A stretch of 64,000 nt of DNA from Patescibacteria group bacterium (GCA_023263945.1 JALQTW010000004.1:3095-67094), one strand, 5' to 3'; positions 31,535 through 43,823 are shown, numbered from the stretch's first letter. Notes: generated from the letters alone by a model not told the origin. A program made the numbers and translations.

Positions 31535-31564
31535 TCTCAATTCTTAATTCCAAATTCTCGATTC
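31535..31564. repeat. TCTCAAT 7-mer array (complement of ATTGAGA)
   Basis: TCTCAAT TCTTAAT TCCAAAT TCTCGAT TC. Confidence 0.7.
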
Positions 31565-32229
31565 TATGAAGCCATCGCTTCTGCCTTCACTGCCCTTCGC
31601 ATGGTCCACAGCGCACTCACGCCAAGCGTTGTGAGAGCAACAATGAGGCCAGGCCCCGTGTGGCTCAACGGAGCACCGGAATTGTTGTTTCCTACGGAGA
31701 GAACCGGGGGGTAAGGCTTGTATCCGTCTGGGTAGTATTGGTTTGGATAATTCGGATAGTTTGGGTAGCCGTAGGGGCAACCGTACGCTGCACAGTTAGG
31801 GTCATACGCACCGCCAGATCCACCAGAACCACTTCCACCGCCTGTGTTTCTTGGAGAAGATGAAGAACTGCCTGTGGGCAATTGAGGAACAATGTCATCA
31901 TCGCCATTTGGCAACTGGGGTACGATGTCATCGTCCGTGGTTGGAAGCTGTGGAATTTGATTTGCAGTCGGAAGGTTTGGAATCTGAGAATTTGGAGTCG
32001 GGAGATTCGGAATTTGCGAGTTACCCAAATTCAGCGTGGGAATGGCAGGATGGAGCTGAGGGATTTGGCTTCCGCTGGGAGATTGCTGCGACGGAAAGAG
32101 ACCGTTCAATGCTTCATCGGGCGTCACATATGCGTAAGCAGACCCGCTTGTGAGTAGCGGAATCATCAAGCCTGCAAGAACAAGGCCGAAACGGGCAATT
32201 CGTGAAGTGATATGGGTATGGGTGTACAA
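31564..32229 (-). CDS. Secreted Pro/Gln-rich repeat protein with LPXTG-like C-terminal sorting signal
   Basis: A TTG at 32229 lies 6 nt after a TATAAT box. The signal peptide ends SGSAYA. Repeats are NSQIPNLPT x2-3 and DDDIVPQLP x2. The C-terminus is PLSHTG-PGLIVALTTLGVSALWT-MRRAVK. Confidence 0.5.
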   Translation of the reverse strand: MYTHTHITSRIARFGLVLAGLMIPLLTSGSAYAYVTPDEALNGLFPSQQSPSGSQIPQLHPAIPTLNLGNSQIPNLPTPNSQIPNLPTANQIPQLPTTDDDIVPQLPNGDDDIVPQLPTGSSSSSPRNTGGGSGSGGSGGAYDPNCAAYGCPYGYPNYPNYPNQYYPDGYKPYPPVLSVGNNNSGAPLSHTGPGLIVALTTLGVSALWTMRRAVKAEAMAS

Positions 32230-32235
32230 CGTTTT

Positions 32236-32246
32236 ATTATAGCACA
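32236..32246 (-). promoter_or_regulatory. Extended -10 promoter (TGTGCTATAAT), leaderless
   Basis: The reverse complement reads TTTTTGTGCTATAAT, then AAAACG (6 nt), then TTG 32229. The listed ORF start MCYNK is a read-through of this promoter. Confidence 0.5.
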
Positions 32247-32300
32247 AAAAGGGGGTTTTTTACAAGGGAGGATCTGGGCTTAGGAAAGCCACAACCGCGC

Positions 32301-32382
32301 TAGAATTGAGAATTTGGAATGGTGAATTGAGAAAGGGTAAGAGTCCATTCTTCTCAATTCTAGATTCTCAATTCGCAATTCT
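32301..32382. repeat. Long imperfect inverted repeat of GAATTGAGAA words (stem-loop after the 620-aa gene)
   Basis: GAATTGAGAA (32323-32) pairs with TTCTCAATTC (32351-60). GAATTGAGAAT (32303-13) pairs with ATTCTCAATTC (32365-75). Confidence 0.65.
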
Positions 32383-41299: not shown

Positions 41300-41323
41300 G
41301 AGGGAGGTTAAGGAGGAGCCTCT

Positions 41324-42559
41324 TTAAATGGACGAAGGAGGAACAACCCATCGGCAGTTACTGAAACACGCATCACCATCGTTCGTGTTGCCATCGTCAC
41401 AGTCTTCACCGGTTTCCGTTGTTCCGTTTCCACAGACGGAGGAAGGGGAGGAGGACGAAGAAGAAGACGACGACGAAGAGGATAAGGAACTGCTGGAAGA
41501 ACCGCTTGTACAAATACCTGAAGAACAAATAAGTCCCAGAGGGCATACGTTCGTTCCGTCACACGGAACACAGAGACCGTTCACGCACACTTGGCCACTT
41601 GTGCAGAGGTTGCCGATACATTGTGCCGATGAACTTGATGAACTGGAAGACGATGAAGAAGGGGGACCGCTCGATGAAGATGAAGAGGATGTTGTGGAAC
41701 TGGAAGAGCTGGTAGAAGAGGAAGAGGAAGACGAAGAGTTCGAGGAAGAATTGCTAACAGAAGAAGAACTGAAGGAAGTATTGCTTGATGAACTCGTGCT
41801 GGATGTTGAAACACATGTTCCACTTCCACTACATTGATAACCTGAAGGACAGAGATGGGTCGAGTCACACGGAGTACACACCCCATTCGTACACACTTGA
41901 TTGTTGAAGCAGAGGGAGCCCGTGCATTGTGCCGACGATGTACTGCTGGAACTAGCAGCACCATGACCGGGGCAGGCTCCTGACATTTGAAGTCCCTGAC
42001 CACAGATGAAACATAGATCGATATCACTCATCACATAGATCTGTTTGCCACTTCCTGTGCTGTCCAGCCTCGTCAGTTTGTTAATCTCATTGTAGAGAGC
42101 CTGTTGGTCGGTTGTATCAGCATCGTTTACTTGTGCTTGTGAGAGGAAGAACGTGCCGTCAAAGAGGAAGAGCTTTGTTTTCCCCGCCTGATAATTCGCA
42201 TTCTCCCGTCCGGAATACTGGTACCCCCAGTAGAGTGTGCCTGCGGGAATTTGATAGTTTCCGGTTGTGGGGGTAATAGGAACATTCACCATAGAGCCCT
42301 GCGGACAGACGACCAGGTTGTGTTCATCTCCTTTTATAATGACTCCCTGCAGAGACTGATCGCTTGTGTATTCATTCACAGGAATGCCCTGGTAGAGAGC
42401 ACCAAGAAGAGATGCTCCGGGACGCGGAGCAGCAGAGAGATCTAATGTGGGAATGAGGATGTCATTCTCTTGTTGTTTTTGTTCAGAGACGACGGTGGCA
42501 ACCACTGCCGCAATGACAGCAATTCCAATGACCGAGAGCAGAAGGTGCTTGAGGCCCAT
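41324..42559 (-). CDS. Anchored surface protein: unknown N-domain, two 8-Cys modules, poly-Ser linkers, DUF4215-like cap
   Basis: TM LLLSVIGIAVIAAVVATVV. 8-Cys modules QCTGSLCFNNQVCTNGVCTPCDSTHLCPSGYQCSGSGTCVS and QCIGNLCTSGQVCVNGLCVPCDGTNVCPLGLICSSGICTS. C-terminus CGNGTTETGEDCDDGNTNDGDACFSNCRWVVPPSSI. Confidence 0.55.
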   Translation of the reverse strand: MGLKHLLLSVIGIAVIAAVVATVVSEQKQQENDILIPTLDLSAAPRPGASLLGALYQGIPVNEYTSDQSLQGVIIKGDEHNLVVCPQGSMVNVPITPTTGNYQIPAGTLYWGYQYSGRENANYQAGKTKLFLFDGTFFLSQAQVNDADTTDQQALYNEINKLTRLDSTGSGKQIYVMSDIDLCFICGQGLQMSGACPGHGAASSSSTSSAQCTGSLCFNNQVCTNGVCTPCDSTHLCPSGYQCSGSGTCVSTSSTSSSSNTSFSSSSVSNSSSNSSSSSSSSTSSSSSTTSSSSSSSGPPSSSSSSSSSSSAQCIGNLCTSGQVCVNGLCVPCDGTNVCPLGLICSSGICTSGSSSSSLSSSSSSSSSSSSPSSVCGNGTTETGEDCDDGNTNDGDACFSNCRWVVPPSSI

Positions 42560-42631
42560 TGGAGGGAAGGATAGAGAGAAAGTTGGCGGGATGCAATAAA
42601 AAAGTTACGGTGAAGAAGGCGGTAGTAAGAA

Positions 42632-42696
42632 GTCAGTAATCAGTAATCAGTAATCAGTAGTCAGTAGTCAGATCTCATGTCTCAAATCTCATGTCT
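42632..42696. repeat. CAGTAAT/CAGTAGT 7-mer array plus ATCTCATGTCT x2
   Basis: GTCAGTAAT CAGTAAT CAGTAAT CAGTAGT CAGTAGT CAG, then ATCTCATGTCTCAAATCTCATGTCT. It lies between the two paralogous genes. Confidence 0.8.
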
Positions 42697-43823
42697 TATA
42701 GACTTGCCGGCGGCACCACCCATCGGCAGTTACTGAAGCATGCATCACGATCGTTCGTGTTGCCATCGTCACAGTCTTCTCCGGTTTCGGTTTGTCCATT
42801 GCCGCAGATTGCGGAGGAGGATGAGGAAGACGAGGAAGATGAGGAGGACGAAGAGGACGAGGAAATAGAAGAAATAGATGATGATGAAGTTTCCTCACAT
42901 CTATTTGTCCCCGAATTACAGACCATATTGTAAGGACAACTCACGCCATTTCCACATCGATAACACAAGCCAGCCTGACAGACTGTTCGTGAATTATTGC
43001 ATTCATCCTGATCACACGAACCTGCACCTCCGCATTGCCCCCCAATACATGCAAGTCCATTTGGACAGTTGGCATCTGTTGAGCATGCTTGTTGTGATGT
43101 GCTTGATGAAGAGGAAGAGGATGAAGACGAGTAGTTCGAGGAAGACGAGGAAGAGGAAATGAAGGACGAAGAAGACGAAGAAAGAGACGAAATAGATGAT
43201 AACGATGAAAGAGCGGAGCTGCTTGAAGTGCCTCCCACTGGACAAGCATTTGCAGGCAGAAGTCCCTGTCCGCAGATGAAGCACAAATCAACGGCGCTCA
43301 TCACATACAACTGCTTACTGCTTTCCGCCGTGCTGAACTGCGTCAATCTGTTGATGTCTGCATAGAGCGTGCGTTCATCCTGCGTTAAATTTGGTGCATT
43401 CACCTGTGCTTGCGAAAGGAAGAATGTCCCGTCAAACAGTGCAAGCTTTGTTTTGCCTGCCGCGTAATTGGCATTCTCCTGCCCGGAATATTGGTAGCCC
43501 CAAAACAGCGTGGTTGCACTTGCCGGAGCAAGGGAAGGGTTGATAACAGGAATGTTGGAAGCGGTTCCAATGGGGCACGAGACAAGGTTATGTTCATCTT
43601 TCTGGATGAGTGCACCGGCAATGGATTGCTCGCGTGTATATTCATTGAGTTGAATGCCGTTCACCGTTGCACCAAGAAGGGTAGAGCCCTTCACTTCCGC
43701 ACGCGAAAAATTGAGGGTCGGAATAAGAACATGCGACGAAGAGCGCTGAGTGGCAACGGTTGCAACAATTGCTGCAGTGACTGCAACACCAACGACTGAA
43801 AGAAGGAGAGTCTTCAGGGTCAT
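42696..43823 (-). CDS. Paralog of 41324..42559 (anchored surface protein with DUF4215-like cap)
   Basis: ATG 43823 (MTLKTLLLSVVGVAVTAAIVATV) is preferred, because the listed 47-codon N-terminal extension runs through REP-like repeats. The N-domain aligns with the paralog (LFWGYQYSGQENANYAAGKTKL.LFDGTFFLSQAQVN). Confidence 0.55.
   Translation of the reverse strand: MTLKTLLLSVVGVAVTAAIVATVATQRSSSHVLIPTLNFSRAEVKGSTLLGATVNGIQLNEYTREQSIAGALIQKDEHNLVSCPIGTASNIPVINPSLAPASATTLFWGYQYSGQENANYAAGKTKLALFDGTFFLSQAQVNAPNLTQDERTLYADINRLTQFSTAESSKQLYVMSAVDLCFICGQGLLPANACPVGGTSSSSALSSLSSISSLSSSSSSFISSSSSSSNYSSSSSSSSSSTSQQACSTDANCPNGLACIGGQCGGAGSCDQDECNNSRTVCQAGLCYRCGNGVSCPYNMVCNSGTNRCEETSSSSISSISSSSSSSSSSSSSSSSSAICGNGQTETGEDCDDGNTNDRDACFSNCRWVVPPASL

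Follow-up and report, generated by a model that had tools for sequence, protein, structure and literature searches.

A row of seven genes for modular, adhesin-like, predicted surface proteins, with domain cassette exchange between strains of a probable CPR bacterium

Within the 64-kb window (64,000 nucleotides, the whole stretch of DNA that was analysed), ORF calling finds seven minus-strand genes, named G1 to G7, at 31564-43823, where an earlier note on this DNA had also seen a co-directional run. G1 (31564..32229, or 32247) encodes 221 aa, G2 (32387..34249) 620 aa, G3 (34303..36060) 585 aa, G4 (36057..39272) 1071 aa, G5 (39272..41299) 675 aa, G6 (41324..42559) 411 aa and G7 (42696..43823), a G6 paralog by NCBIfam and BLASTP, 375 aa. 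Both of the translational-coupling overlaps that had been reported can be seen in the sequence, with TGATG at 39274-39270 giving a 1-nt overlap of G4 and G5 at 39272, and ATGA at 36060-36057 joining G3 and G4; the remaining intergenic gaps are 136, 24, 53 and 157 nt long. As had been noted, Pfam and NCBIfam profile searches detect no enzyme, transporter or regulator gene inside the block, nor any recognisable catalytic domain in the seven proteins.

A related strain, represented by contigs L082 and L086 of JGI sample 3300045378 (~93-96 % DNA identity), carries all seven genes in the same order, such that synteny is conserved in the one close relative compared (~95 % nucleotide identity). Against this strain, dN/dS of the block genes is 0.08-0.22, indicating that G1 to G7 are real genes, and similar values are seen for the flanking MutY-like (0.13) and S10 (0.08) genes. 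Thus, the row of seven genes is maintained by purifying selection. The G6 ortholog is intact in L086, and an identical G7 protein is present in the same JGI sample. On ENA contig L085, the public gene caller chose an antisense ORF in place of G6; opposite a strand that codes for poly-Ser runs an antisense ORF rich in D/E, a hazard for annotation.

G1 is probably a transcription unit of its own, a point missed in the earlier note, with a promoter-like TTGTAA-18-TATAAT at 32265-32236 ahead of it and a hairpin at 32290-32385 between it and G2. The 221-aa start is also the choice of the public gene caller, and dN/dS is 0.09. The product is rich in Pro, Gly and Tyr and has no match in Pfam or NCBIfam. 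It begins with a signal peptide whose predicted site, AYA|Y, comes directly after an h-region that is weaker than the helices of G2-G7, and ends in LSHTG, a modest hydrophobic segment (PGLIVALTTLGVSALWTM) and basic RRAVK; this is the sequence noted before as a putative LPXTG-like C-terminal signal, and the Pro of LPXTG is absent from it. There is no sortase gene within the 64-kb window.

In each of the proteins encoded by G2-G7, one or two K/R residues come before a single N-terminal 19-mer of strong hydrophobicity (Kyte-Doolittle 2.4-2.9), in agreement with the short basic N-terminus and single transmembrane helix previously ascribed to these six; a hydropathy scan finds no second segment of similar strength, and none has a C-terminal sorting signal. 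The helix is predicted to be an uncleaved signal-anchor of N-in/C-out orientation or, less likely, a long cleaved signal peptide, the latter being considered because h-region length is 17-20 residues and AIA|Q would make a plausible cleavage site in G2. Poly-Ser runs of 4-17 residues, earlier attributed to most of the proteins, occur in all seven.

The modules carried behind these N-termini are largely those that had been named, and Pfam and NCBIfam support them, with the one propeller reclassed as Kelch. Laminin_G_3 is found three times, in G2, G3 and G4 (43-58 bits, cutoff 27.6), and 8-Cys modules occur once in G2, twice in G6 and once in G7. DUF11/TIGR01451 repeats are found by Pfam and NCBIfam in G4 (two stretches) and G5 (three stretches, 65.4 bits), but not in G2, G3, G6 and G7, where poly-Ser linkers take their place. 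The DUF4215-like caps score above cutoff as TIGR02232 in G4, G6 and G7 and slightly under the cutoff of Pfam DUF4215, with that of G5 recognized only by a BLASTP match to G4 (4e-8); they are near-identical, always lie at the extreme C-terminus and end in Cxx[MV]xPPxxx.

Taking the proteins in turn, G2 comprises the helix, an N-terminal domain described below (the N-domain), poly-Ser, an 8-Cys module (residues 172-209), poly-Ser, an Ig-like domain with an inserted dockerin pair, and LamG (Laminin_G_3, 57.5 bits). The dockerin is of type I (Dockerin_1, 28.6 bits against a Pfam cutoff of 22.9, residues 280-326), and the Ca-loop pair seen before is a duplicated one, DVNGDTFVDGTD and DLNPNGVIEEFD, as in cellulosomal dockerin-bearing proteins. 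Unlike in those proteins, it sits inside the Ig-like domain of a LamG protein that is predicted to be membrane-anchored, and there is no match to a cohesin or scaffoldin partner among the ~57 window ORFs scanned.

G3 consists of the helix, N-domain (45-157), LamG (217-382), a PT-HINT/BIL domain (385-515) and a 70-aa tail with 12 Cys; residues 11-379 match G4 (6e-29, BLASTP). The Hint domain, which the earlier note had also recognized, scores 56.2 bits with PF07591 (Pfam cutoff 27.7) and carries Cys1, the TxxH block and HN at its end (Cys1...VLVHN|K), as BIL/pretoxin-HINT domains do. Its closest structures by PDB sequence search are 8w20 (4e-16), where the HINT lies within a 1368-aa protein, and the BIL domain 2lwy (2e-10), and other solved Hint relatives lie inside ADP-ribosyltransferase toxins. 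A splicing intein was considered and rejected, as VLVHN is followed by Lys rather than by a +1 Cys, Ser or Thr. In contrast to BIL/pretoxin-HINT systems, what comes after the G3 Hint and its Lys is a 70-aa Cys-rich tail, with neither a toxin domain nor an immunity gene; the tail has no match in Pfam, NCBIfam or the PDB and is kept between strains, with two to three changes. A non-splicing Hint of this type would cut itself, and the Cys-rich tail might thereby be released or rearranged.

In G4, the helix and N-domain (46-170) are followed by LamG, two DUF11/CLIPPER repeats, a beta-propeller (~700-1020) and a DUF4215/TIGR02232 cap (1034-1062). The propeller had been assigned to the Asp-box class; a propeller it is, but Pfam scores it as Kelch_1 (49.5 bits, NanM-like), and there is a single canonical Asp-box (SSDEGVTW, residue 803). 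G5 has the helix, a region that reads as Ig-like, three DUF11/CLIPPER repeats split by poly-Ser, a Cys-rich region and its cap. G6 starts with the helix and a separate kind of N-domain (160 aa), continues with two 8-Cys modules embedded in long poly-Ser and closes with a TIGR02232 cap (32.2 bits, NCBIfam); it is 57 % identical to G7 across residues 1-200 (BLASTP). G3 and G4 do not belong to the TafC family (NF052521), for which they reach 26-38 bits where the cutoff is 410; their likeness to this haloarchaeal Tat-fimbria subunit (PMC11821415) is a weak match across the LamG region, and unlike TafC they have no Tat signal.

DUF11, now "CLIPPER", is a characterized stalk domain of fibrillar adhesins (PMC12617251), and G4 and G5 carry such a known stalk family in tandem, placed, as in those adhesins, as Ig-like repeats between a putative anchor and candidate binding domains. 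LamG, Kelch and dockerin are binding folds, though not specific adhesin families. The differences are that the putative anchor of G4 and G5 is an N-terminal helix instead of a C-terminal LPXTG, OmpA or sortase-type signal, that there are only two to three repeats with poly-Ser between them, and that the repeats begin DMRATLS and DLALISI, the isopeptide-triad Lys apparently being missing when they are read by eye.

The part shared by G2, G3 and G4, overlooked in the earlier note, is an unannotated domain of ~110 aa right behind the helix, with the conserved pattern C...YE[YF]...E...WxG...Y...C. Among 1.84e9 (1.84 billion) representatives, its profile matches 31 proteins, ~29 of them genuine, and G2 scores 112 bits with this HMM. 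In the relatives, the domain is always at residues ~45-160, and an N-terminal helix like that of G2-G4 precedes it in 23 of the 27 examined. The heads carried by the family include LamG (seven members), PHB-type esterase (three), DUF4215 (three), Kelch (two), YWTD (two), dockerin (two) and FG-GAP (one), as well as a beta-helix. To judge from its esterase, beta-helix and beta-propeller partners, the shared part appears to be an anchor for surface display in general, and the esterase-bearing members argue against a purely adhesive family; a role in adhesion alone is not supported. The structure predicted for the N-domain is a weak model (pLDDT 59.7), for which Foldseek returns no significant neighbour, and a role for the domain as anchor or stem is proposed from its position. 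Between the N-domain of G6/G7 and that of G2-G4, the hhalign probability is 4-6 %, which leaves homology not established.

In the related strain, the helix and N-domain of G2 (34249-33740; 33740..34249, minus strand; codons 1 to ~168) are replaced as one block, for in the strain alignment 13-23 of every 30 nt are identical inside this cassette and 29-30 of 30 outside it. Its edges are sharp, with the start codon at the 5' side and the poly-Ser linker at the 3' side. The related strain's version of the module is 82 % identical to that of another protein, P0003, whose downstream architecture is unlike that of G2. Elsewhere, an N-terminal stretch of G5 (41335-41186) falls to 74 % identity between the two strains, and the linker and cap region of G6 is hypervariable and cross-matches the G7 cap. 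The modules common to paralogs, together with a cassette replacement that ends at a poly-Ser linker, demonstrate module shuffling and bear out the view that a limited module set is being recombined.

Beyond the block, the window encodes SLH and DUF4215 proteins, one of which (18907-21219) has two SLH domains and a DUF4215 repeat by profile search, as well as GH57, GH15, ROK, CarA and PurN. This context fits a CPR/Peregrinibacteria-like, probably ultra-small organism, an identity that we infer from the setting because EF-Tu, being 70-77 % identical to many phyla, is indecisive. Moreover, the arrangement has a precedent, which makes the earlier statement that it is not a described system overstated. 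Candidatus Peribacter riflensis has a 14-gene cluster for large, Cys-rich exported proteins similar to Myxococcus Cys-repeat proteins, for which a role in attachment was proposed, and Peribacteria also have S-layer genes, sortase, glycogen metabolism and nucleotide synthesis (Anantharaman et al. 2016, PMC4736985). The likenesses lie in the clustering of genes whose products are exported, modular and Cys-rich with Myxococcus-type repeats (here, seven adjacent genes with TIGR02232, the Myxococcus Cys-rich repeats, above cutoff in G4, G6 and G7), strain variation focused in these very proteins, a proposed attachment function, and a shared background of S-layer genes, glycogen metabolism and nucleotide synthesis. 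Compared by description, the proteins here are shorter (375-1071 aa vs ~1655 aa) and poorer in Cys (1.5-5.8 % vs ~7 %), and GC is ~49 % vs 58.5 %; the N-domain, poly-Ser linkers, Hint and dockerin go without mention in the passages of that paper that were compared.

The reading that we favour, at a probability of roughly 0.6, is a tandem array of adhesin-like modular surface proteins, each built of anchor, linker or stalk and variable heads, which are recombined as cassettes in what is probably a CPR (Peregrinibacteria-like) bacterium. That the proteins are extracytoplasmic and modular, with an adhesin-like architecture, is supported by their domain content; membrane topology, surface exposure and adhesion of G2-G7 are more distant predictions. 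Starting at the membrane and moving outward, G2-G7 would be anchored by one N-terminal helix and continue with a membrane-proximal domain, i.e., the ~110-aa disulfide-containing, all-beta N-domain in G2-G4, another in G6 and G7, and the Ig-like one in G5. Ser-rich linkers and/or DUF11/CLIPPER stalks would then carry the remainder through the envelope to distal binding heads (LamG, the Kelch propeller, the dockerin-bearing Ig-like domain and the 8-Cys modules), and in four of the six proteins to a DUF4215 cap, acidic and rich in Cys, with PPxxx at its end. Glycans or proteins, whether of other cells or of polymers, are the proposed ligands of the heads, and duplication, gene conversion and the replacement of cassettes could diversify the array, breakpoints falling in repetitive linker-coding DNA. 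With no assembly, secretion or regulatory component in it, the block reads as an array of tandem paralogs and not as the dedicated apparatus envisaged before.

The same parts could instead tether any exoprotein by helix, N-domain and Ser-linker and thus serve to capture nutrients by polymer scavenging, rather than host contact. The PHB-type esterases/alpha-beta hydrolases (three members), beta-helix and YWTD or Kelch propellers of the N-domain relatives speak for this, as do the concanavalin-like lectin/glucanase fold of LamG and the starch/glycogen enzymes of the window, but the lack of a recognisable catalytic domain in all seven block proteins and the CLIPPER stalks, dockerin or Cys-rich caps, which are typical of adhesins and protein-protein docking, make it rather unlikely; it differs from the favoured reading mainly in the type of ligand. 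A docking role for the caps and the dockerin of G2 is improbable; in this view their target would be an S-layer or scaffold protein, e.g., that at 18907-21219, and the proteins of the block would span from membrane to S-layer or assemble into a cellulosome-like surface complex of several proteins. That view draws on Dockerin_1 in G2 and in two N-domain relatives, on the near-identical terminal caps and on the nearby SLH + DUF4215 protein, yet the scanned window ORFs include no cohesin, and DUF4215 has no known partner.

Pilin-like subunits polymerizing into a fibre with differing tips are hardly credible. A short basic N-terminus, a hydrophobic helix and a small beta domain with a Cys pair are superficially pilin-like, and type IV pili are common in CPR bacteria (PMC4736985), but a G|[FM]xxxE prepilin site or conserved Glu5 occurs in none of the six proteins and none of 27 relatives, the window has no pilus assembly genes, and Foldseek returns no pilin. 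It is also very improbable that G3 is a contact-dependent polymorphic toxin whose pretoxin-HINT frees a disulfide-rich C-terminal effector, with its neighbours as accessories or decoys. The PT-HINT score and toxin-embedded relatives that would suit such a role are set against a tail that matches no toxin family and stays nearly constant between strains, when polymorphic toxin tips normally vary; furthermore, the gene downstream of G3 is the 620-aa paralog G2 and so not an immunity-like gene, and no dedicated secretion-system domain is present.

A bolder extension of the favoured reading, which we offer tentatively and with the odds against it, is that helix, N-domain and poly-Ser form an unrecognized, lineage-specific "plug-and-display" anchor cassette of CPR-like bacteria, recombining at linker DNA and moving anchors and heads between genes and strains. 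If so, the N-domain itself would have a conserved envelope component as its ligand, and the [LF]xG motif just past the helix might act as a novel signal for processing or sorting. With such a cassette, an episymbiont could rapidly reconfigure the surface by which it contacts its host.

The prevailing view of CPR bacteria is that they live attached to host cells, and few of the molecules through which that contact is made are known. Against this background, the locus offers a concrete, selection-maintained set of candidate contact proteins, refining a phenomenon already noted in Peregrinibacteria rather than adding a new kind of system. The N-domain, with its ~29 cluster representatives, is a candidate entry for domain databases and a marker for such surface proteins. 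Finally, the swapped G2 module directly illustrates how co-occurring strains exchange whole domains as cassettes at poly-Ser linkers, a process by which surface variation and shifts in host range could plausibly arise.

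The seven minus-strand genes for surface proteins between 31564 and 43823 are all present in the ORF list, as G1 (31564-32229, or to 32247), G2 (32387-34249), G3 (34303-36060), G4 (36057-39272), G5 (39272-41299), G6 (41324-42559) and G7 (42696-43823). As the earlier note had described, they are consecutive, and Pfam and NCBIfam place no enzyme, transporter or regulator inside the block. The two couplings read from the sequence are exact, with TGATG at 39274-39270 giving the 1-nt overlap at 39272 and ATGA at 36060-36057; the other intergenic gaps in the block are 136, 24, 53 and 157 nt. 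Close packing or overlap of the genes from G6 to G2 leads us to infer that they form one operon, and the 136-nt gap sets G7 apart from G6. G1 may have its own transcription unit, since a hairpin (32290-32385, z = -3.05) and a promoter-like TTGTAA-18-TATAAT site lie upstream of it; promoter and terminator scans of the block gave nothing informative beyond this promoter-like site. The leaders of G2-G7 (5' of each start codon, within 34249-43823) are C/T-rich, of the CTCC type, and contain no Shine-Dalgarno-like GGAGG, which suggests that initiation in the source organism is Shine-Dalgarno-independent.

Each of the proteins G2-G7 has one strongly hydrophobic N-terminal 19-mer (Kyte-Doolittle 2.4-2.9) after one or two K/R residues and no second such segment, in agreement with the short basic N-terminus and single helix claimed for six of the seven. 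In G1 the N-terminus is a conventional signal peptide whose last residues are AYA, with Y next, and the C-terminus consists of LSHTG, a moderately hydrophobic stretch and then RRAVK. Runs of 4-17 Ser, the proposed poly-Ser linkers, occur in seven of seven proteins, with Ser content reaching 22-24% in G6 and G7. Profile searches bore out nearly all of the modules that had been named by eye: Laminin_G_3 in G2, G3 and G4 (Pfam, 43-58 bits against a cutoff of 27.6), DUF11/TIGR01451 twice in G4 and three times in G5 (Pfam/NCBIfam), PT-HINT in G3 as the Hint/BIL domain (Pfam, 56 bits) and Dockerin_1 in G2 as the Ca-loop pair (Pfam, 28.6 bits against a cutoff of 22.9). The 8-Cys modules were likewise found, one in G2, two in G6 and one in G7, and gave nothing significant against PDB sequences (granulin and Notch EGF at E = 0.17-0.25). 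The DUF4215-like C-terminal caps match TIGR02232, 'cysteine-rich acidic repeat', above cutoff in G4, G6 and G7 and score slightly below cutoff with Pfam DUF4215; that of G5 was detected via a BLASTP match to the G4 cap (4e-8). The Asp-box beta-propeller of G4 is indeed a propeller, of a class other than the one named (Kelch_1, 49.5 bits, NanM-like), with a single canonical Asp-box, SSDEGVTW, at residue 803. Identity with TafC was rejected, the match covering LamG only and lying far under cutoff.

What is new here is an uncatalogued N-domain family and a linker-bounded cassette swap. Overlooked in the earlier note, G2, G3 and G4 can be aligned over the helix and the next ~110 residues, a domain that is covered by no Pfam family. 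Its profile found only 31 proteins among 1.84 billion representatives, about 29 of them genuine and two repetitive false hits, and in every full-length protein the match lies at residues ~45-160, straight after the N-terminal helix. The helix itself is present in 23 of the 27 relatives examined, and the remaining four look N-terminally truncated. The domain carries the signature C...YE[YF]...E...WxG...Y...C, with a short [LF]xG motif just after the helix. Downstream of the poly-Ser linker the heads differ widely, with LamG in seven family members, a PHB-type esterase in three, Kelch in two, a YWTD propeller in two and FG-GAP in one, along with dockerin in two, DUF4215 in three and DUF11 in one. 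Because the same N-domain precedes such different heads, the helix and N-domain appear to form an unchanging unit close to the membrane, to which interchangeable cargo is attached.

An AlphaFold model of the G2 N-domain from a four-sequence alignment is all-beta but weak (pLDDT 59.7, pTM 0.58), and Foldseek found no significant neighbour for it in the PDB (best E = 0.12). A word-indexed protein search returned nothing for the N-domain alignment that included helix and poly-Ser, nor for the N-domain of G7, and only one relative, P0018, with the trimmed 29-sequence profile; the index evidently misses the family. Degenerate-pattern scans for the G2-type domain found no relatives in JGI metagenomes or viral contigs. 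When genomes were scanned with EF-Tu, 80 loci matched at 70-77% identity; they come from many phyla, Patescibacteria, Gracilibacteria and Saccharibacteria among them, and none of the 80 has an N-domain gene. As identity was much the same across these phyla, the scan did not settle the taxonomy; the source organism is probably CPR/Peregrinibacteria-like.

Exact-protein look-ups with EF-Tu and G7 retrieved two contigs of a related strain, L082 and L086 (JGI sample 3300045378), whose DNA is ~93-96% identical to the window. Together they keep all seven genes in the same order, RNase Y, IS200-like, G7, G6, G5, G4, G3, G2, G1, MutY-like, ParE, EF-Tu and S10, and the synteny proposed as a check thus holds in one close relative. 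The comparison covered this close relative, and collection scans for both types of N-domain gave no distant loci. L001 and L084, both from ENA sample ERZ27267552, match the window at 100% identity and are hence uninformative; the G5 protein of L085, from the same sample, is identical as well. Between the window and the related strain, Nei-Gojobori dN/dS is 0.08 for G4 (partial), 0.12 for G3, 0.22 for G2 and 0.09 for G1, with 0.13 for MutY-like, 0.08 for S10 and 0.02 for EF-Tu. These values mean purifying selection; the block consists of real genes that a close relative has kept. On L082, the gene downstream of S10 (9250-10713) encodes a protein of 487 aa that has a signal peptide and Ser-rich stretches; the window has RNase III in this place, a further strain-specific difference in surface-protein content. 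On the JGI contig L083 (1-717), the middle of G3 is joined directly to an RNase III gene other than the window's, with a clearly diverged protein and no DNA match; this junction is likely an assembly chimera rather than a real rearrangement truncating G3, and was set aside as evidence of rearrangement.

Against this conserved background, codons 1 to ~168 of G2 (34249-33740, helix and N-domain) are only 13-23/30 nt identical between strains, with flanks at 29-30/30. The divergent segment is bounded by the start codon on its 5' side and by the poly-Ser linker on its 3' side. Compared with the N-module of another family member, P0003, whose downstream architecture differs, the related strain's G2 module shows 82% identity, and the window's module is 64-65% identical to both. 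A recombination footprint, in addition to domain bookkeeping, thus supports describing the proteins as module-shuffled. Elsewhere, the G5 N-terminus is 74% identical between strains, G3 LamG has a patch of 84-88% identity, and the linker and cap region of G6 (41755-41336) has many indels and an identity of 53-74%. Its matches to the G7 cap suggest gene conversion.

G6 and G7 share another N-terminal domain, of ~160 aa and 57% identity, for which degenerate-pattern scans found no relatives in GTDB genomes or JGI metagenomes; the structure model from G6 has a pLDDT of 32. Since hhalign gives it a probability of 4-6% against the G2-G4 domain, with Cys positions aligned, homology is not claimed. 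Antisense to G6 at 41328-41837 (+), a 169-aa D/E-rich ORF mirrors the poly-Ser coding DNA, and a public gene caller picked it over G6 on an ENA contig (L085, 9463-9972). G6 is nonetheless the real gene, given its paralog G7, its TIGR02232 cap and its intact ortholog in L086.

The Hint domain of G3 starts at Cys385, contains a TPEH block and ends in VLVHN followed by Lys. Because the +1 nucleophile is absent, it cannot splice, and membership among inteins fails for the same reason. Its best PDB relative is 8w20 (4e-16), where the HINT is part of a 1368-aa protein, followed by the BIL domain 2lwy of C. thermocellum (2e-10) and HINTs inside ADP-ribosyltransferase toxins. From what is established for BIL and pretoxin-HINT domains, we predict that G3 undergoes N- and/or C-terminal self-cleavage, which would release or rearrange a 70-aa tail with 12 Cys. 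A polymorphic toxin was rejected, there being no toxin domain and no immunity gene downstream, and the tail being conserved between strains.

The block lies among housekeeping genes (EF-Tu/S10, MutY-like, ParE, RNase Y, RNase III, NusB), and the window also encodes GH57, GH15, ROK and glycogen-synthase-like GT proteins, CarA and PurN. A second trio of surface-protein genes draws on the same module set (17183-21219, minus strand). Its products are a lipobox protein of 265 aa containing 37 Cys (17183-17980), a LamG protein that has a helix at its N-terminus (18011-18811) and a protein of 770 aa in which two SLH domains are combined with one DUF4215 repeat (18907-21219); this SLH protein is a possible docking partner of the DUF4215 caps. 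At 23615-25371 (-), the products of two adjoining genes are T4SS_pilin (PF18895) proteins, each with a signal peptide, and the window ORFs scanned include no further type IV secretion component. An IS200-like Y1 transposase gene (44075-44518) lying between RNase Y and G7 is flanked by a REP-like palindrome, CCGCGGCAAG[TC]ATGCCG, with copies at 44001-44017, 44647-44663, 57429-57445 and 57506-57522; the pattern has five matches against 0.04 expected by chance, four of them intergenic, and the arrangement resembles RAYT/REP. A 903-aa protein (46572-49283, +) combines three lamin-tail (LTD) domains with a nuclease of staphylococcal type and a helix at the C-terminus, and its Ser/Glu-rich N-terminal region (~46660-47400) is only 71-87% identical in L086. 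Six ORFs of 195-909 aa at 49312-56273 and 59905-62634 have no Pfam match, and GC at 50-54 kb is 40-41% against ~49%; this region may be foreign or fast-evolving. ParE, whose toxin gene (29725-30230) sits between those for EF-Tu and the MutY-like protein, shows 100% identity in the two strains; the gene is preceded by two small ORFs, whose lengths in L082-L084 are 73 and 82 aa.

The block is best read as paralogous surface-protein genes arrayed in tandem, in which each protein combines an anchor with a linker or stalk and with variable heads. The adhesion or host-contact apparatus proposed earlier is thus supported in part, as an array of modular surface proteins; for want of any assembly or secretion genes, the term 'dedicated apparatus' finds no support. 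A type IV pilin identity was rejected for want of a prepilin motif, and cellulosome membership fails at least one defining test. Nor is the arrangement without precedent, as had been thought: a locus of this kind, a cluster of large Cys-rich exported proteins, has been published for Ca. Peribacter riflensis (PMC4736985). Because DUF11 is now characterized as CLIPPER, a stalk domain of fibrillar adhesins (PMC12617251), G4 and G5 match the fibrillar-adhesin plan, but inverted, with the anchor N-terminal. Since the same anchor carries esterases in some relatives, the helix/N-domain unit that is conserved is better called a surface-display module than an adhesin as such, with host cells or polymers as candidate ligands of its heads.
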